A DNA stretch of 27,740 bases from a virus (Duplodnaviria; Caudoviricetes), in IMG/VR virus record IMGVR_UViG_3300049139_000146, positions 1 through 27,740 of that record; one strand, given 5' to 3'. How positions within the stretch are numbered: position 1 is the first letter of the stretch; each line of letters begins with the position of its first letter. The notes below the pieces were generated by a model that worked only from the letters and a program-made list of their open reading frames with translations, had not been told where the DNA came from and made no database searches. A program made the position numbers and the translations under genes. Positions 7,453 to 26,621 of the stretch are shown here, in pieces.

Positions 7453-7638
7453 CTATTGCTCGGCTACGGGCGTCGGTGTGGGCTCCGGGCCCGGGGCTAC
7501 CTGCGCGCGGAGCTGCTCGTTCTCCTTCTCCACCTCCGCGAGCTGCGCCTCCAAGAGGACGTTCGCCTCCAATAGGTGGGCGCACTTCTTGCGGAACGCT
7601 TCGAGTCCCGCCTCCATGCTGATCTGGCGTCCCATCAC
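7453..7638 (-). CDS. Small coiled-coil protein, last gene of reverse cassette
   Basis: 4-bp overlap with upstream stop; heptad pattern LLEANVLLEAQLAEVEKENEQLRAQ. Confidence 0.7.
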   Translation of the reverse strand: MMGRQISMEAGLEAFRKKCAHLLEANVLLEAQLAEVEKENEQLRAQVAPGPEPTPTPVAEQ

Positions 7639-8498
7639 GCCACCGCCTTATCTGCGAGCTCCCGGTACCGGTCCAGGAGATCCGTGTTGTTGAGGAACGG
7701 ATGCTGCGGGAAGAAGCTCCAGTGCGACACGACCGCGTCGCCTCGGAGGATGTTCGGCCGGCCAGTGGCGATCGGCTGGTGCACCGTGTGCCACGACTCC
7801 TCCTCATCGGGGACGAGGACGCCGGGCTTGGCCAGTGCCGCGTAGTCTTCGCCACGGGAGGCGAAGCAGCTCACGGAGAACTGGGTGCCGGGCTGGAGCG
7901 GGAAGTCCTGGTAGAGGTACAGGTCTTCGACCGTGCCCGTCTCAATGTGTGAGAGCAGCATCTCGTGGAGCTTCACGGCGAACGGCCCGTTGGCCCAGCC
8001 GGTGGGGTCCATGCAGTAGGCGGCCACCTGCCCCCACTCCATGGGGATCTTCCCGCAGGCTTGCAGAAAGTGGGAGCAGATCGCGTTGTTGACGATGATC
8101 GGGAACACGGCGACCGGCGCGGGCATCTCGATCCGCGCCCGCACCAGGTTCTCGATGGCGTCGTCGTGGATGTAGACGACGTCGTCGTCTAGGCGCACGT
8201 AGATCGTGTCGGGGTCGGTCATGTACCGGTATGCGAGCCCGGTGTAGCGCTGCTTGGGTAGCCGGCCGAGGTTGATGCCGTCGGGGCGGTGGACGAGCCG
8301 GAACCAGTCGTGTTGCTCGTCGAGTTCGTGGGCGTAGGCGATGTCGTCTTCCTGGCCCTGCGGGTCGGTGTTCATGTACGCCCAGGCCTCGTCGATGAGC
8401 CCGCGCTCGACGTCCCGCTGCAGATACTTGGCCAGGATGCTGTACGTCCGGCGTCTCCCGTAGGGCGTCCAAGCGACCACACGGCGGCCATCGATCAC
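7635..8498 (-). CDS. Putative GT-A-fold glycosyltransferase (287 aa)
   Basis: GTG start with RBS AAGGAG; VVAWTPYGR N-terminal strand; IYVRLDDDVVYI DxD motif; C-terminal VSHWSF. Confidence 0.7.
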   Translation of the reverse strand: MIDGRRVVAWTPYGRRRTYSILAKYLQRDVERGLIDEAWAYMNTDPQGQEDDIAYAHELDEQHDWFRLVHRPDGINLGRLPKQRYTGLAYRYMTDPDTIYVRLDDDVVYIHDDAIENLVRARIEMPAPVAVFPIIVNNAICSHFLQACGKIPMEWGQVAAYCMDPTGWANGPFAVKLHEMLLSHIETGTVEDLYLYQDFPLQPGTQFSVSCFASRGEDYAALAKPGVLVPDEEESWHTVHQPIATGRPNILRGDAVVSHWSFFPQHPFLNNTDLLDRYRELADKAVA

Positions 8499-8737
8499 GG
8501 TCGTTCTCCTTCGCTCGGGACGGTTTCGAGTGAGGTGATCCGGGCCAGCCGGAACATCCGCTTGGTCATGGGCTGATCGTCCTGGGTGCGGCAGAGGAGC
8601 CACATGACGGCTTCGCTGTTGCCCCACTCTGGTGTACCGATCAGACGCCGAAACTCCAGCAGCCAGGGCTCGGCAATGTCGACAGTGAGGGTCTCGGGCT
8701 GCCCGTTGTCGGGGATCCAAGTAAGGCGGGCGATCAC
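8495..8737 (-). CDS. Hypothetical protein (80 aa)
   Basis: GTGA overlaps at both ends; MIARLTWIPDNGQPETLTVDI... Confidence 0.65.
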   Translation of the reverse strand: MIARLTWIPDNGQPETLTVDIAEPWLLEFRRLIGTPEWGNSEAVMWLLCRTQDDQPMTKRMFRLARITSLETVPSEGERP

Positions 8738-9753
8738 GCCACCACCCCCACGGGCGCCATGAGCGCTGCTTCCCACTGCCGATTGACCGCCTGCAGGATC
8801 GATCCCGACGCCTCCGCCCGGGCCGCCATGCCGACCCGCTGCCGCAGCTCCGGGGCGTCGGCGAGCTGCTTGAGGATGCGGCCCCACTCGTGCTCCCGCT
8901 TGACGAGGAACCCGTTCTCCCCGTGCCGGATCACCCGCCGATACGGCTCGACGTCCGACGCGACCAGCGGGATGCCGAGCATCGACGCCTCGAGGAACTT
9001 CGTCGGGAACTTCGCCCGGTTGAACGGGATGTCCCTGTACGGCGCCACCCACACGTCGAACTCCTTCACCGCCTGGAGGTAGTGCCCGAAGTTCTCCACC
9101 CAGCCCAGCGCACCCAGACGATCCCCGCGCAGGCCGCTCGCCATCGCCGTGCGGGCATCGATTCCGACCAGCCGCACGAAGGTCTCGCCGGGCCGGCGGT
9201 AGCCGGAGATCCGATTTAGCGCCCGTACCACGCCCGGCACCTGCAGCTCGTGGACCGTCGACGCAGTGCCGGCCCATCCGACCGAGAGCGTCTCCGGGTC
9301 GTAGTCGCGGACCTCGCCCAGGTACTGGGCGGGCAGCCCGTTGCCGACGACCCGCACGTCGTCGTGGTGCTCGCGCAGCAAGGCAGCCAGCGGCTCGGAG
9401 CAGCAGGTGACGGTGTGCGCCACCTGCATGTTGTCGATCAGACCTTGCCGCAGGGCGGGGTCGTTCCACAGTTGGTAGGCGGCCGTGTTGGACGGGTCGA
9501 GGTGGAAGTAGTCATCGTCCAAGTCGAGCACGAGACGGATGCCGTGGTCGCGCATCTCCCGCCACGCCTTGGACGGCTCCGGCTTGGCGACACGGCAGCC
9601 GACGACCACGTCCAGGCCCTGGTCCCGCCAACTGCCGGGCAGGTACGGGCTGGCGCTCGTGTCGTGGCCGAGCCAGTTGAGGGCCATCGCAGGGAGTACC
9701 CCGCGGTACAGGCCGGAGCCTGCCGTGTCGGCCGTCCAGAAGTGGATGCGCAC
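8734..9753 (-). CDS. GT-B-fold (GT4-like) glycosyltransferase (339 aa)
   Basis: GTG start; GSGLYRG, LDLDDDYF and FNRAKFPTKFLEASMLGIPLVASDVEPY...GENGFLV motifs. Confidence 0.88.
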   Translation of the reverse strand: MRIHFWTADTAGSGLYRGVLPAMALNWLGHDTSASPYLPGSWRDQGLDVVVGCRVAKPEPSKAWREMRDHGIRLVLDLDDDYFHLDPSNTAAYQLWNDPALRQGLIDNMQVAHTVTCCSEPLAALLREHHDDVRVVGNGLPAQYLGEVRDYDPETLSVGWAGTASTVHELQVPGVVRALNRISGYRRPGETFVRLVGIDARTAMASGLRGDRLGALGWVENFGHYLQAVKEFDVWVAPYRDIPFNRAKFPTKFLEASMLGIPLVASDVEPYRRVIRHGENGFLVKREHEWGRILKQLADAPELRQRVGMAARAEASGSILQAVNRQWEAALMAPVGVVA

Positions 9754-9754
9754 T

Positions 9755-10708
9755 TCAGGCCGCCAGGTAGCCGGGGAGCCAGTGCTCGGCGTAGTAGCGG
9801 ACGGTGTGGTGGATGCCCTCGTCGAGGGGCACGAAGTCGGCGGCGGTGAGGCCGATCTGCTGGAGGGTGCTGGTGTCGGAGGTGACGACGGCGTTGGGGA
9901 CTTCGCCGGGCCGCATGGGCAGGTGCTTGATGCCGACGGGCTGGAGACCGGTGTAGCCGGTGGCCTCCTCGGCGACGAGGCGGGCGATGTCGTTGACCGT
10001 GCACGATTCGAGCGGGCCGACCTCAACCGGACGCTCGGTGGGCCCGTGTTCGGCGGTGTGCTCGAGCGCGGCGACGAAAGCGCGGGCGACGTCGGCGACG
10101 TACACACAGTCGCTGATCTGGGTGCCGTCCCCGTACACCTCAATGTCGGTGCCTGTGAGGGCTCGGCACACGAACGATGGTGCGATCTTGCGGACCTTGC
10201 TCGTGCCGTAGGGGGCGGCGATGGACTGGCCCGGGCCGTAGGCGTTGACCGGGCGGACGATAGTGATGCGCCCGCCGTCGCGGTAGAGGTTGTACATGCG
10301 GGCGAGGTCTTCGGCGGCCGACTTGGTGATCGTGTAGCAGCCGGTTCCCTGGAGCCGCATGGCGTGGTTGCCGACCCCGGCGTAGACGGTGGGGAGCCGG
10401 TACTGGGTGGCGGCCTCGAAGACGTTGAGCGAGCCGAGGATGTTCGTCTCGGCGGACGGCCGCGGGTTGCTTATGGTCTCCTGTGTGCCGAGGACGGCGG
10501 CGAGGTGGATGATCCCGTCGACGTGGGCGGCGGCTTCTGTGACGGCGGTGGCGTCGCGGACGTCGCCGAGGAAGAACTCCTCGCCGTCGGCCAGCTGCTG
10601 GCGCCGGTCCTGGTGGTCGAAGACCAGCGCCTGGTGGCCACGGGCGATGAGCTCCTTGCGGGTCCACGACGCGAGGAAGCCGCTGCCGCCGGTGATCAGT
10701 ACCTTCAT
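9755..10708 (-). CDS. NAD-dependent NDP-sugar epimerase/dehydratase (extended SDR, 317 aa)
   Basis: MKVLITGGSGFLAS Rossmann motif, IIHLAA, YTITK (YxxxK), NAYGPGQ, YGDGTQISDCVYVADVARA. Confidence 0.93.
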   Translation of the reverse strand: MKVLITGGSGFLASWTRKELIARGHQALVFDHQDRRQQLADGEEFFLGDVRDATAVTEAAAHVDGIIHLAAVLGTQETISNPRPSAETNILGSLNVFEAATQYRLPTVYAGVGNHAMRLQGTGCYTITKSAAEDLARMYNLYRDGGRITIVRPVNAYGPGQSIAAPYGTSKVRKIAPSFVCRALTGTDIEVYGDGTQISDCVYVADVARAFVAALEHTAEHGPTERPVEVGPLESCTVNDIARLVAEEATGYTGLQPVGIKHLPMRPGEVPNAVVTSDTSTLQQIGLTAADFVPLDEGIHHTVRYYAEHWLPGYLAA

Positions 10709-10899
10709 GCCTGCTGCTCCTTGCTGAGGGGGATCGGTGAGGCGGCCTGTGCGGCGCGGGTGACGGCGTCCCAGAACTCGCGGGCCGCAGCGTCGGGCTG
10801 GTAGCGGGGGCCGGTGGTGATGTGGCCGTCGGGGCGGATGCCGACGATGAGCGTGCCGTCGTCCTCCCGCAGGGCCAGCGCGAACTCGGGCTCGGTCAC
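10705..10899 (-). CDS. Hypothetical protein (64 aa)
   Basis: RBS GGAGG; coupled at both ends. Confidence 0.7.
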   Translation of the reverse strand: MTEPEFALALREDDGTLIVGIRPDGHITTGPRYQPDAAAREFWDAVTRAAQAASPIPLSKEQQA

Positions 10900-11525
10900 G
10901 GCGCCTCCTGCTGGGTGATGGCGGCGCGGATGCGGCGGGCTGCGTCTTGGTTGGAGTCCCAGGCGCCCCCGTAGGCTTCCTCCGCTTCCAGCTCTTCAGC
11001 GACACGAAGCACCCGATCAAGGGCATCCTGCTTGCCCTGCGCTGACCGGCGGGTCCCTGCTGCTGCGTTGCGGATGTCGTCCCAATCCCGCGTGAGGTCC
11101 ATGCCGAGGGCTTGCTGAAGTTCGCGCCTCCAGTGGGCAAGACGCTGTTCAAGCGCGGCAGCTCGATCGGGCTCGTCGTCGCCGAGGGCTTCGCGTGCGC
11201 GGCGGATCTGGTAGCGGAGGGACTCGGCCGTCGCCTCCGCCACATCCAACGGGGTCTGCGCGGGCGGCACTTCGGGGCGGGTGCCGTCGTCCGGCATCCA
11301 GCCGGGGCATCCGTCGTGAGCGTCGTGCGGGACGCGGTGCACCTGCGGGCAGAGGTGGGCGGGGATGGTGGCGTGCGGGCAGGTCTTGCAGTGGTCGCAC
11401 TGGGTCGCTCCGTCGGGGCAGTCGCAGCGGGGGCAGCGGCGGTCGGCCGGGCACTGGATCGGCGTGCCCCAGCCGTCGGTGTGCACCTCGCCGCCGCACT
11501 CAGGCCGCGTGCACGGGCCGCTCAT
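10896..11525 (-). CDS. Cys/His-rich N-terminal domain plus coiled-coil protein (209 aa)
   Basis: ATGA overlap; CTRPEC, CPRCDC, CDHCKTCPH clusters; helical C-terminus. Confidence 0.65.
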   Translation of the reverse strand: MSGPCTRPECGGEVHTDGWGTPIQCPADRRCPRCDCPDGATQCDHCKTCPHATIPAHLCPQVHRVPHDAHDGCPGWMPDDGTRPEVPPAQTPLDVAEATAESLRYQIRRAREALGDDEPDRAAALEQRLAHWRRELQQALGMDLTRDWDDIRNAAAGTRRSAQGKQDALDRVLRVAEELEAEEAYGGAWDSNQDAARRIRAAITQQEAP

Positions 11526-18255: not shown

Positions 18256-18676
18256 CCTTTCTGGTCTTACAGACTGGCTGCACGTCCAGCTCGATGAGGA
18301 TGAGCGCGCCGCCAAGGCTCGGCGCGGGATCTTCCCATCCCCTGGCGTGGACGACGACGGGACGGTCTGGCTGCACGTCCGGCCGGGCGGCAACGCCGTG
18401 CTCGTGAGGTACCGGGACCCCGCCGAGGGGTGGGACGACATGGCCAAGCTGAAGAACTGGGCGGACGCCGAACATGGCTGGACGCAGGAAAGGATGCTGC
18501 GCGAGATCGACGCGAAGCGGCGCATCCTAGCCGGAGCTATCGAGACGCGGGCCTGGGCGATCGGGGAGTCCGGAGCGGTAGCCGGGCCCGCCGTCAAGCT
18601 GGCCAACGCAACACTGCGCCTCCTCGCCGCGCCTTACGCGGACCGACCCGGATATCGCGAGGAGTGGCGTCCGTGA
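18248..18676 (+). CDS. DUF6221-like protein
   Basis: WLHVQLDEDERAA, RMLREIDAKRRIL, LRLLAAPYADRPGYREEWRP signature. Confidence 0.8.
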   Translation: MNDLSGLTDWLHVQLDEDERAAKARRGIFPSPGVDDDGTVWLHVRPGGNAVLVRYRDPAEGWDDMAKLKNWADAEHGWTQERMLREIDAKRRILAGAIETRAWAIGESGAVAGPAVKLANATLRLLAAPYADRPGYREEWRP

Positions 18677-19692
18677 CTGACCTCGTCCCCCACCAGCAGG
18701 ACGCCACCCCCGCCGTCTACGACGCTGCGACGCTCGCCGTCCTGCACGCCATGGAAGAGGCAGCCGAGAAGCACCTCGACGCCATCCGCCCCCACAACAC
18801 AAAGCGCGGCTACGCCAACGACTGGGCACTCTGGGAGGAGTTCCACGACTGGCTGGGGGAGCGGACCGGGCACCGCATCGCCTCGACCAACGTCACCAAG
18901 GGCACGCTCGTCGGATTCGTCGTCTGGCTCGACACCATCAAGCTCGCCGCCCCCAACAGCATCGACCGCAGGATCACCGGCGTCACCGTCACCGCGCGGA
19001 ACGAACACGGCATCGAAGTACCCAAAGCCGCCACCGTCGCCGCCCGGCAAGCCCTCAAGCCGCTGAAGAACGACCCCGAACGGCAAGCACGCGGCAGGGG
19101 CAAAGCCGCCGCCGTCACCCCGGAGCAGCTGCGCCAGATGAACGCCGCCGTCGCCGACGGGCTCACCGGACTCCGCGACCGCGCCCTCTGGCTCATGGCC
19201 TTCGCCATCGCAGGCCGCTCCGCCGAAGTCGCCGCCCTCCGCGCCGACACCATCACCCACGTCAGCCAAGGCCTCGAAGTCCACGTCCCCGCAGTGAAGG
19301 GCCGCCCACCCCGAGACGTCGTCGTCCACTACGGCAAGAACCCCGACACCTGCCCCGTCCGCGCCTGGCTCACCTGGCGCGCCGCCGCAGGCATCACGTC
19401 GGGGCCCGCCTTCCTACCCATCACCGTCCACGGCCGCCTCGGCGACCGCGCCCTCTCACCCGAAGCCGTCCGCGAAATCATCGCCCGCAACGCCGAACGC
19501 GCGTGCCTCTCCGTCCGGTTGACCGGACACTCCATGCGGGCCGGGTTCATCACCACCTCTCGACGCGCAGGCAAGCGAGAGGAGAAGATCCGCGAACAGT
19601 CCGGACACGCCGAGAACAGCCCTGCCTTCTGGGGCTACATTCGGGAGGCCGACAAGTGGACCGATGCCGCCTCAGAGGACATCGGCTTGTGA
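18673..19692 (+). CDS. Second tyrosine recombinase (Cre/resolvase-like, 339 aa)
   Basis: GTGA overlap; LRDRAL...GRSAEV (R), VKG (K), GHSMRAG (HxxR), SGH, GYIREA (Y). Confidence 0.9.
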   Translation: MTDLVPHQQDATPAVYDAATLAVLHAMEEAAEKHLDAIRPHNTKRGYANDWALWEEFHDWLGERTGHRIASTNVTKGTLVGFVVWLDTIKLAAPNSIDRRITGVTVTARNEHGIEVPKAATVAARQALKPLKNDPERQARGRGKAAAVTPEQLRQMNAAVADGLTGLRDRALWLMAFAIAGRSAEVAALRADTITHVSQGLEVHVPAVKGRPPRDVVVHYGKNPDTCPVRAWLTWRAAAGITSGPAFLPITVHGRLGDRALSPEAVREIIARNAERACLSVRLTGHSMRAGFITTSRRAGKREEKIREQSGHAENSPAFWGYIREADKWTDAASEDIGL

Positions 19693-19738: not shown

Positions 19739-20074
19739 ATGACAGATGACGACCGCTTCGAGAACGAGATCCTCTCCATGACAACCGCCCCGCCGGGTTG
19801 GACAGTCCGTGCACAGGTCAAGGCTCACAAGCCGGGAACAAGTGAGCGCTGGGTAGAGGAGGAAGAGGTCTTTCCCGTGGTGGGTTGGGCTGTTGTCGCC
19901 TGCCGCTACCGCGATGGCAGCGTCAGCAACAAGGTCGAACCCGTCTTCGTGACGAGCGAAGGCCGGTTGGAACACGAGTCGCTGTACAGGTGGCAATACT
20001 CCGAGCTGGAACCCAAGGCGGGGCATCCGAGGATCACGGTCTCCTTTGAGATTCGCGCACCCTCGGCCGCATAG
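19739..20074 (+). CDS. Hypothetical protein (about 111 aa)
   Basis: APPGW...FPVVGWAVV; start uncertain; followed by terminator. Confidence 0.6.
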   Translation: MTDDDRFENEILSMTTAPPGWTVRAQVKAHKPGTSERWVEEEEVFPVVGWAVVACRYRDGSVSNKVEPVFVTSEGRLEHESLYRWQYSELEPKAGHPRITVSFEIRAPSAA

Positions 20075-20108: not shown

Positions 20109-20142
20109 AACGCCCCCGCAGCCAGTCGGCTGCGGGGGCGTT
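20109..20142. terminator. Bidirectional terminator
   Basis: Perfect 15-bp stem AACGCCCCCGCAGCC-AGTC-GGCTGCGGGGGCGTT. Confidence 0.85.
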
Positions 20143-20156
20143 CTGCTGTCCGGGGC

Positions 20157-20183
20157 TTAGCCCCAGGCCGTGTCGTCGCTCAT
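20157..20183 (-). CDS. Candidate 8-aa peptide MSDDTAWG
   Basis: GGGGAGG RBS, upstream promoter-like sequence and structured leader, downstream terminator. Confidence 0.4.
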   Translation of the reverse strand: MSDDTAWG

Positions 20184-20319
20184 GATGCCTCCCCAGATCG
20201 GTGCGGCCCGCCGAGGTGCCCCCTCGCCCCGAAGGGCCGTCGCGAAGACACGGCGGGCCGCCCGATCACGGTACGCGGAACGTGGCCGTCCTGTCAGGGG
20301 GTCGTGCCACACTTGCCGC

Positions 20320-20351
20320 ATGCCCCGCCGGGCCCCCCGTCTCGGCGGGGT
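20320..20351 (+). ncRNA. Candidate 6C-like single-hairpin RNA (may only be the terminator of the convergent gene)
   Basis: GCCCCGCCGGG-CCCCCCGT-CTCGGCGGGGT directly after TGTCAG-N10-CACACT. Confidence 0.35.
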
Positions 20352-20354
20352 CTG

Positions 20355-20693
20355 TCACGTCTGCCGCAGGCCGGGCTCCGGGTTGCAGACCTGGCACATC
20401 TCCACGTGGAGGCTCTCGTCCTCCAGCGCCAGCAGCGCCTCGTCGCGGGTGAGGAATCCGTGGTCGCCCTTCCAGATGCCGCAGCCGCCGCGGTGGAGGA
20501 CGGTCCGCCTGTCGCGGGCCGGCTCCAACTTCCAGCGGGCCTCGTCGCGCGCCCGCTGCGCCTGCCGCCGTCCTTGCTCCAGCTCTGCTTCGAGCGTGCG
20601 GATCTTCGCCCGGGTGGTGCGCAGCTGGTAGTCCAGCCACTCCTCCAAAGCCGTCAGCTTCGCGAGGCGCTCCTCAGGCGGCATATCGTTCAC
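20355..20693 (-). CDS. DUF6233-like protein
   Basis: Coiled coil, then LHRGGC...TRDEALLAL...CQVCNPE; leaderless GTG 7 nt after TAGAAT. Confidence 0.8.
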   Translation of the reverse strand: MNDMPPEERLAKLTALEEWLDYQLRTTRAKIRTLEAELEQGRRQAQRARDEARWKLEPARDRRTVLHRGGCGIWKGDHGFLTRDEALLALEDESLHVEMCQVCNPEPGLRQT

Positions 20694-20701
20694 GCGTTCG
20701 A
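20686..20701. promoter_or_regulatory. LexA (SOS) box
   Basis: TCGAAC-GCGT-GAACGA on minus strand fits TCGAAC-N4-GNNCGA and covers the predicted TSS/start codon. Confidence 0.7.
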
Positions 20702-20717
20702 TTCTATGATGGCGGGC

Positions 20718-20927
20718 GTGAGCAGCAACCACAGCCCCGACCGCTACCACCTCACCCTCTCCTCCGCCGGCCGTCCGGTGATGCACGGCTGGTGGGGGAG
20801 CGAGCCCGTGGCCCGGGGCAAATTCCGGGACTGGATCGGCGAGCACGGCACCCTGCCCGACGCCCGTATCACCCTCGTCGACGAGGACACCGGCGACGTG
20901 TTGACGACCTGGCCGGACGAAGCGTGA
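20718..20927 (+). CDS. Small hypothetical protein (69 aa)
   Basis: TATGAT-7nt-GTG leaderless; RYHLTL...GRPVMHGWW...LTTWP. Confidence 0.75.
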   Translation: MSSNHSPDRYHLTLSSAGRPVMHGWWGSEPVARGKFRDWIGEHGTLPDARITLVDEDTGDVLTTWPDEA

Positions 20928-25334: not shown

Positions 25335-26621
25335 CTACCCGCCGGCCCGTTCACGCTCGAACCGGTCCCAGCGCTCCTGCAGTGCCTTCATGATGGCACG
25401 CTCCATGGGCACCGTCACGGAGCTGTACGTGCCCTCAACTCCCGGCACCTCGTGCCCCATACGGGACTCCACCGCGAACCGCGGGTGCCCGTCCTCGTCC
25501 AGCCACGCCTTGTGCCCATGCCGGATCAGGTACATGCGCTTGCCCGCGAAGTCCGCCACGGCCGGGATCGCCGGCCTGGTGCGGCCGTTCCCGCGGGCCC
25601 GCGTCCGCTCATCACAACCCCGCGAGATGGGGAACCAGTAACTCTTCGAGAAGGGAGCAGCCTTGAGGCAGCCGCCCCCGATGGCAGGGAAGACCCACAT
25701 GTTGTCGTGCGACGCGAGCAGCTTCTCCAGCATGTCGGCAAGGAACGGCGGCACGACCAGGGTGCGGTAGGAGTAGTACTTCGGCGGCACCTCGGCCACC
25801 GACTGCCCCTGCATCTGCTGCACCTGCTGCTGCACCCGGATGGCAGGCATGAGGCCGTCACCCTTGCCGTAGCGCCGCATGTCCTCCTCGTACCGCTGCT
25901 CTTCGTCGGGATCCGGGCGGGGGTCACTGGCCGGCCAGTTCGGGTAGCAGTACTCGCGGCGGAGGCCGAAGAGTTCACCGGGGCGCATCCCGGTCATCGC
26001 CATGGTCCAGATCATCACGTAGCCGGTGTAGCCGCAGACGACCTCGGCGTTGCGCGCCAGCTGGTCGATGGCGGCGATGTCCATGTCGCGCTTGCGCTCG
26101 CGCCGCGTCTGCTTCACGTACCTGCCGCGCGTCCGCTTCCGCTCGACGGGGGAGACCTTGATGAGTCGCGGCACGGCATCGTCGAGGATCATGCCCAGCA
26201 CGGTCATCACATTCGCCGCGCTCGCGGCGGTCGGCAGCTTCTTGTAGATGTGCTTACGGAAGGCCCGGTAGGCAATGACGTCGATGTCCTTGACCGCAGT
26301 GCCTTTGAAGTAGGGGCGAATGTGCCGGTTGATGATCGACTTGTAGCCTTTGTACGTCGTGTAGGCGTGATCGGTGGCGGCGAACCAGTCGTCGATCCAG
26401 TCGGTCATCAGGGTGGCGCCGTCGCGGTTGGAGATGCCTGTGCCGTGGCGGAGTTCGTACAGCTGATCCTGCCCGAACTCGAACGCCTCGTCCTCGTCGG
26501 TGAACCCGCCCTTGGACTCGAAGCGCTTGCGGCCGTCGTCGCGGTACTCGCCGCTCCACCACTTCACGCGGCAGGTTCCGCCTCGCCACTCGACGTAGAT
26601 GTCCTGAGCGCGTCTGGCCAT
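25335..26621 (-). CDS. int: Tyrosine integrase
   Basis: GGFTDEDEA arm-binding region, core-binding domain, TGMRPGEL, PPKY, YLIRHG, RMGH, TYS; RBS GAGGGGG. Confidence 0.95.
   Translation of the reverse strand: MARRAQDIYVEWRGGTCRVKWWSGEYRDDGRKRFESKGGFTDEDEAFEFGQDQLYELRHGTGISNRDGATLMTDWIDDWFAATDHAYTTYKGYKSIINRHIRPYFKGTAVKDIDVIAYRAFRKHIYKKLPTAASAANVMTVLGMILDDAVPRLIKVSPVERKRTRGRYVKQTRRERKRDMDIAAIDQLARNAEVVCGYTGYVMIWTMAMTGMRPGELFGLRREYCYPNWPASDPRPDPDEEQRYEEDMRRYGKGDGLMPAIRVQQQVQQMQGQSVAEVPPKYYSYRTLVVPPFLADMLEKLLASHDNMWVFPAIGGGCLKAAPFSKSYWFPISRGCDERTRARGNGRTRPAIPAVADFAGKRMYLIRHGHKAWLDEDGHPRFAVESRMGHEVPGVEGTYSSVTVPMERAIMKALQERWDRFERERAGG

Follow-up and report, generated by a model that had tools for sequence, protein, structure and literature searches.

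The enterococcal inhibitor peptide iCF10 is a pheromone-like peptide encoded by prgQ on a mobile element and made from a short transcript with structured RNA; it is exported and acts on PrgX, the plasmid's own receptor. In the arbitrium system of phages (AimR-AimP-AimX), AimP is a propeptide of 60-80 aa that is secreted, processed and re-imported, and its cognate RRNPP receptor is encoded in the same phage. Cross-talk between Bacillus phages, in which one phage's arbitrium peptide pushes another into lysogeny to the benefit of the emitter, is described in 10.1101/2025.10.13.681967 and PMC13220667.

The locus described here lies in the viral record IMGVR_UViG_3300049139_000146, of which one window, i.e. 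the whole stretch of 27,740 nucleotides, was analysed. A promoter, a structured leader, a mini-gene and a terminator form a cassette on its minus strand. The likeness to arbitrium lies in a peptide of 6-10 residues that would act in the cell on a DNA-binding receptor. The cassette ORF has only 8 codons, and the absence of a signal peptide, pointed out by the first-pass annotation, was supported. Whereas arbitrium phages carry their receptor, no receptor was found in the same genome here, and the candidate receptor is a TrmB/PLD-LuxR protein of Actinobacteria instead of an RRNPP protein. The cassette is neither arbitrium nor an RRNPP system. With iCF10/prgQ it shares a short signal-like peptide on a mobile element and a short structured transcript, but it has neither an export signal nor a receptor of its own.

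Layout and setting of the cassette

The elements of the cassette and its neighbours in the window are listed below.

25335-26621: integrase, a tyrosine recombinase
20355..20846, minus strand: open frame holding the DUF6233 gene (PF19746), upstream of the cassette
20323..20350, minus strand: stem-loop with GACGGGGG loop, which probably terminates transcription of the DUF6233 gene (gene end at 20355)
20303..20312, minus strand: conserved GTGTGGCACG box just 5' of the -35 element, candidate regulator site
20292..20297, minus strand: -35 element CTGACA, kept in homologues, with an 18-nt spacer to the -10 element
20268..20273, minus strand: -10 element TACCGT (TACCGT, TAGCGT or TAACGT in homologues)
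20200..20263, minus strand: leader or small RNA, three-way junction from a 24-sequence alignment
20261-20251 with 20213-20203, minus strand: leader stem P1 (11 bp), followed by unpaired UUCGC at 20246-20242
20237-20226, minus strand: leader stem P2 (GCCC-UUCG-GGGC), with a short P3 within 20225-20214
20188..20194, minus strand: ribosome-binding site (RBS) GGGGAGG
20157..20183, minus strand: mini-gene MSDDTAWG-stop, ATG to TAA, 8 codons, acidic
20109..20142, minus strand: perfect 15-bp terminator hairpin (z -6.64)
18634..19692, plus strand: convergent tyrosine recombinase (PF00589), the commonest neighbour of the cassette

The signals claimed in the first-pass annotation were located: the CTGACA-18-TACCGT promoter-like sequence (20297-20292 and 20273-20268, kept in homologues), the RBS (20194-20188), the ATG..TAA frame (20183-20157) and the terminator (20142-20109). 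Of its nested hairpin, the 11-bp stem and the GCCC-UUCG-GGGC tip were found, whereas the G-U-rich inner stem belongs to a single-sequence fold only. Transcription is predicted to start near 20263-20261. The leader (z -4.68) and the terminator each fold better than 200 of 200 shuffles. The terminator hairpin has no U-tract, and it probably works in both directions, since the convergent plus-strand genes end at 20074 and 19692. Neither promoter nor terminator was flagged by a scan with an E. coli-type consensus, Rfam gave no match at gathering score in the window, and none of the records of cultured phages and plasmids spans the cassette.

The same arrangement of elements was found, more often than by chance, in 34 distinct cassette sequences, in 17 of which the GTGTGGCACG box lies no more than 170 nt 5' of the start codon. 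The stem-loop at 20323..20350, weak when taken alone (z -0.99 against shuffles), has similar counterparts in many homologues and presumably insulates the cassette. On the plus strand of 20303-20350, the box resembles an extended -10 element (TG-C-CACACT) before a hairpin with a C-rich loop, and a divergent small RNA antisense to DUF6233 may possibly start there.

The viral record was estimated to be 33% complete. Its gene content is that of a temperate phage, with tail genes, endolysin, holin and tail fibre all up to 14767; minus-strand glycosyltransferase and NAD-dependent epimerase genes lie between tail and lysis genes (7635-11245). The cassette occupies an accessory region between the lysis genes and the integrase, behind DUF6233 and facing a small ORF and the tyrosine recombinase. 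We infer Streptomyces as host from relatives of the cassette that sit in Streptomyces genomes.

Neighbour genes differ among 40 cassette loci, and the cassette is for this reason regarded as mobile. A relative of the recombinase at 18634..19692 was present in 19 of the 40, some of which have short flanks; this recombinase belongs to a conserved family that often abuts the cassette terminator, and a second recombinase lies at 25335-26621. DUF6233 genes were found in 7 of the 40 loci and are therefore no fixed partner. Small LexA-like genes adjoin 8 of the 40 cassettes, and the window has an imperfect sequence resembling the general LexA-box consensus (TCGAAC..GAACGA, 20688-20703) upstream of the DUF6233 gene. 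In the window, as in the homologues that were read, the genes downstream of the terminator are convergent, and a test for a leader-peptide attenuator found no same-strand regulated operon there. The peptide, 8 aa and acidic, does not resemble the hydrophobic membrane peptides of roughly 18-60 aa of type I toxin-antitoxin systems.

A search with the RNA model matched 4 of 151 genomes, including the search centre and one weak, chance-like match, and a DNA search of 401 genomes gave four matches, two of them true. A promoter scan of metagenomes returned at least 119 loci, almost all by chance, with one true case among the matches listed. Among the genomes scanned, the cassette is rare.

The peptide and the leader RNA

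Promoter-anchored and terminator-anchored scans were performed without use of the peptide, to avoid circularity. With the promoter as anchor, 11 of 14 loci held the ORF. The terminator-anchored scan gave 27 loci, or 26 places after removal of one terminal-repeat copy. In 24 of these, an RBS and a start codon lead to ...D-T-x-W-G-stop directly 5' of the terminator, with GGAG or GGAAG ahead of every start; the other two are unrelated. A loose peptide pattern that allowed any spacing yielded 18 viral loci (two being one terminal repeat), all in frame.

Codon use in the 24 terminator-anchored mini-genes was GAC (23) or GAT (1) for D, ACC (16), ACG (6) or ACA (2) for T, TGG throughout for W, and GGC (18) or GGA (6) for G, followed by TGA (13), TAA (7) or TAG (4); residue x was A (13), G (6), T (2), W (2) or Y (1). 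D, T, G and the stop vary by synonymous change only, which is the conservation that had been proposed as a check on the ORF. Outside x, the variable columns (5 of 15) are exactly the five that allow silent change, a 1 in 3003 coincidence that serves as a guide only, the sequences being related. Codon pattern and peptide-blind scans (24/26 and 11/14 places) together indicate that the cassette encodes a real peptide under coding selection.

The 34 cassettes were gathered with a motif-forcing expression and not used for invariance. Their products have 7-15 aa, and seven cassettes contain two in-frame units, e.g. MSDDTTWGNSDTAWG, with different units joined in six of the seven. In 33 of the 34, the second residue is S, A or G. 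Aminopeptidase removes the initial methionine according to the nature of residue 2, and by this rule the window product would probably be SDDTAWG, and cassette products in general 6-7-mers. A 51-aa protein from an upstream GTG, open in the window, was rejected, since just 6 of 17 homologues keep that frame open.

The consensus of 24 aligned leader homologues is a three-way junction of 17 pairs with 99% of cells paired and both sides changed in 34 cells. None of 500 shuffles scored as high on pairing, both-side changes or covariation, and slid controls were 41-55% paired. Both-side change was seen in five pairs, a count that does not exceed that in shuffles, and the relatedness of the 24 sequences inflates the other leader statistics. 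The leader thus covaries among its homologues, as a three-way junction that replaces the one long G-U-rich hairpin of the earlier model.

RNA and peptide occur together in 21 of the 34 cassettes, and the peptide without the RNA in 13, four of which lie directly behind another gene (a helix-turn-helix gene in L017 and L020). Six further loci (L344, L451, L452, L068, L072, L073) have the RNA without the ORF; the first three are promoter-RNA-terminator genes with their own terminator. By this distribution, leader and peptide are separable modules. The first-pass annotation had left a choice between a peptide and a small RNA; both are there, not as alternatives. Mini-gene and separable small RNA are real and belong to none of the families tested.

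In the lowest-energy fold of the window transcript, the leader pairs with the ORF and the RBS is partly hidden. The 5' arm of the leader (20242-20254) is complementary to the ORF (20166-20179) over about 12 bases, which is not kept in most homologues; this pairing may possibly act as a translational switch.

DTxWG propeptides, their regulator and related mini-genes

The unit D-T-[A/G/T]-W-G is repeated in apparently secreted propeptides (export signals judged by eye) of Streptomyces phage-plasmids of about 90 kb (pSAM1 type). Their genes are divergent from a gene for a TrmB/PLD-LuxR regulator, in keeping with the suggested link of DxxWG peptides to LuxR-type regulators. On pSAM1 of S. ambofaciens, the pair consists of propeptide WP_053143246.1 and regulator WP_159042060.1, and an internal TDDTAWG of this propeptide has six residues in common with the window peptide. 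Among 14 plasmid loci, eight have apparently secreted repeated DT[A/G/T]WG, three DSAWG, two signal-less RDSAWGC and one no peptide. In ten DTxWG precursors beside the regulator, x is A, G or T only; 21 of the 24 mini-genes end in a unit of these precursors, and three (W, W, Y) match none.

The regulator was modelled (pLDDT 87.5) as a TrmB/TrmBL2-like PLD fold with a LuxR-type end, and a viral record of 89,658 bp with the identical regulator carries a terminase. Relatives at E<=1e-60 are present in 11 of 401 genomes; of these 11 closest genomic regulators, two have DTTWG precursors, two RDSAWGC, and seven no peptide nearby. The propeptide-regulator pair is probably a cell-to-cell signalling system. 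A cultured phage of S. venezuelae, Chymera (gp30/gp29, L292:3550-4825), has a precursor with two DPGWG units divergent from the regulator and offers a ready test system; its pair lies near an integrase and a repressor. Close relatives of the regulator in L444, L445, L514 and L516 are accompanied by signal-less peptides of 25-35 aa ending in RDSAWGC.

A conserved structured leader of about 130 nt lies between regulator and propeptide in L273:2984-3291, L274, L275, L439-L443 and L512. Within it, UCGCAGC is bulged out, and there are a promoter of the form TTGA..-17-CA.C/GT and TGCG-N6-CGCA repeats in tandem, which are likely operators. On pSAM1, two such repeats precede the propeptide promoter. 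UCGCAGC is also the unpaired strand of many mini-gene leaders (window version UUCGCGAC), and it is bulged out in the leaders of all eight propeptide genes of the ~90-kb plasmids. Homology of the two kinds of leader was rejected, as the RNA model has no match there. Mini-gene and pSAM1-type propeptide are alike in the C-terminal D-T-[A/G/T]-W-G unit, a structured leader with UCGCAG/C and an accessory region near DUF6233. The mini-gene differs in having 7-15 codons versus precursors of 50-80 aa with an apparent export signal and repeated units, and in its missing divergent regulator, non-homologous leader and integrating phages.

Chromosomal Streptomyces propeptides that were examined end in DSGWG, DSVWS, DDQWG or DAGWQ. 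Of the earlier suggestion that the peptide mimics a host signal, the signal match stood, but its closest counterpart is the DT[AGT]WG of phage-plasmids and not a chromosomal signal. The bld261 signal of S. coelicolor has a mass of 655 Da, and identity with it was rejected, as none of seven computed candidate masses equals this value. A literature search (main texts, with few subscription papers) gave no account of this mini-gene, of DTxWG peptides as a family or of an orphan signal mimic in the cytoplasm. The words 'orphan' and 'Streptomyces' are absent from the accessible text of 10.1101/2025.10.13.681967, whose supplements could list orphan peptides.

In the phages that carry the cassette, the regulator was found in none of 27 cassette-type viral records with a single query, and a profile of 98 rows (positive control 2.7e-174) likewise found it in none of two sets of 17 and 8 records; 16 of these 25 records are at least 90% complete, and the sets include a few RNA-only records. 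When the window and ten near-complete phages were searched in six frames, unfiltered and with two profiles, nothing but the LuxR helix-turn-helix part was matched. LuxR genes that the phages themselves encode, present in 13 of the 27 records, were rejected as receptors, since their products are short stand-alone helix-turn-helix proteins. An adjacent TPR-type receptor was likewise sought, and no such family occurs among the 53 ORFs of the 33%-complete window, immediate neighbours included. The possibility that the phage itself encodes a hidden, secreted propeptide was also rejected: each mini-gene phage has one D[TS][AG]WG site, a terminal-repeat copy apart, and in the window and the ten near-complete phages no second gene ending in DxxW stood out. 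The DSGWG site of G026 is part of an unrelated protein, and the triple-repeat pattern had no match in viral contigs.

Other actinomycetes have chromosomal mini-genes. Tandem arrays of eight and five (M/V)RD(T/I)GWG mini-genes (L030:1860-2471 and L059:2001-2328), in which every mini-gene has a separate RBS, are flanked on one side by pheT (joined in L059 by an MFS_3 gene) and on the other by a divergent gene for a membrane GGDEF protein, as a candidate peptide-to-c-di-GMP system; in L037 and L079, a single copy stands ahead of an MFS gene. The MRDTGWG genes (L030, L059, L037, L028) resemble the cassette as signal-less RBS-ATG-..DTGWG-stop genes, but they are tandem, lie beside GGDEF/MFS genes and have neither leader RNA nor phage terminator. 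Streptomyces chromosomal MGD(D/G)NDTGWG mini-genes with RBS and terminator (L036, L038, L041, L042 and L045, at about 2001-2044) adjoin an AAA_33 kinase-like gene. An order-wide scan around G005 found chromosomal mini-genes in 2 of 81 genomes, one being the centre, and they are therefore sporadic.

Possible roles of the cassette

We judge the chances about even (roughly 0.5) that the cassette peptide is an orphan cytoplasmic copy of another element's signal, which occupies that element's receptor and probably damps lysis in a shared host. By analogy, it most probably works like arbitrium cross-talk, but through a dedicated gene without a receptor. The prophage would express the cassette in the lysogen, and removal of methionine would leave a 6-7-mer like the processed signal, made in the cytoplasm with neither export nor re-import. 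If a phage-plasmid enters or already shares the cell, the peptide would fill the PLD-like ligand domain of the plasmid-borne regulator. The phage-plasmid would read that hosts are already occupied and lyse less, whereby host cell and prophage would be protected; that occupancy favours dormancy is assumed by analogy with arbitrium. Two-unit versions (DTTWG and DTAWG) would cover two signal types. The leader RNA would stabilise the message and probably also serves another purpose independent of this.

This reading is favoured by the coding selection (24/26, 11/14) and the two-unit cassettes (7/34), by the propeptide units at the end of 21 of 24 mini-genes together with the TDDTAWG match of pSAM1, and by the absence of regulator and propeptide from the cassette phages searched. 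The confident model of the regulator as a TrmB/TrmBL2-like PLD fold and the terminase on the 89,658-bp record with the regulator also argue for it. A precedent for its fitness logic, a prophage that benefits if a superinfecting phage is driven to lysogenise, is given in 10.1101/2025.10.13.681967. Against it count the three mini-genes ending in DTWWG or DTYWG, which are found in no propeptide examined, the scarcity of presumed targets (11/401 genomes at E<=1e-60), the six loci that keep the RNA and have lost the peptide, and the predicted leader-ORF fold that partly hides the RBS in the window. Signal-less peptides also occur beside receptors (RDSAWGC) and MFS exporters, so the missing signal peptide is no proof of cytoplasmic action.

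Host receptors are alternative targets, since 3-7 proteins distantly related to the regulator are encoded in each of five Streptomyces host genomes, and no such peptide adjoins 7 of the 11 closest genomic relatives. The peptide could then be a ligand of chromosomal TrmB/PLD-LuxR members that rewires development, secondary metabolism or defence, and chromosomal DxxW propeptides and MGD(D/G)NDTGWG mini-genes do exist. We consider this unlikely, as the chromosomal propeptides use DSGWG, DSVWS, DDQWG and DAGWQ, and the DT[AGT]WG set is that of the phage-plasmid propeptides.

Still lower is the probability assigned to a true extracellular signal for the phage's own communication, exported by a host MFS protein and perceived through a membrane receptor or a phage protein not recognised as such. 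Signal-less MRDTGWG genes of other actinomycetes do have a membrane GGDEF gene, an MFS_3 exporter gene or both as neighbours, but the GGDEF membrane domain of the arrays was not found in three Streptomyces hosts with the query used, and no exporter adjoins the phage cassette in the window or the cassette loci. A GntR-type regulator is common to the window and all ten near-complete cassette phages; it is a general trait of the phage group, close to the cassette in only 4 of the 40 loci.

The RNA, as a small regulatory RNA or protein-binding decoy, could be the main product and the peptide a secondary passenger, for which leader covariation, the six loci with RNA and no ORF, and the UCGCAGC strand bulged in 8 of 8 propeptide leaders may be cited. 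We give this little credence: the peptide-only cassettes (13/34), four behind another gene, indicate a peptide selected on its own, and the propeptide leaders give no match to the RNA model. An inhibitor of an unrelated host or phage protein, such as an acidic-aromatic tail mimic or a mini-toxin, is equally improbable, for although short acidic peptides that end in an aromatic residue often serve as docking motifs and W and Y occur at x, the five-residue identity, the same three main variants and the mixed dimers are explained more simply by a shared receptor family than by convergence.

Returning to the copied signal, it is possible, at somewhat less than even odds, that Streptomyces prophages counterfeit the quorum peptide of another mobile element, made in its mature form within the cell by a mini-gene that has no receptor, and so silence competing phage-plasmids, with two-unit forms for two signal types and, on the same transcript, a small RNA that has a seed in common with the competitor's signalling transcript. 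If this is correct, the cassette would represent a form of prophage defence that is new in kind, and a peptide-signalling family so far undescribed in Actinobacteria would come to light. If the peptide is a mimic, signal forgery would be the task of a dedicated gene and not a by-product of two complete communication systems, and such genes would lie below the size limit of every gene caller. The 27 nucleotides of the mini-gene provide a handle on peptide signalling in Streptomyces, with a defined, easily synthesised ligand of 6-8 aa, natural variants of it and a named candidate receptor on pSAM1 of S. ambofaciens.
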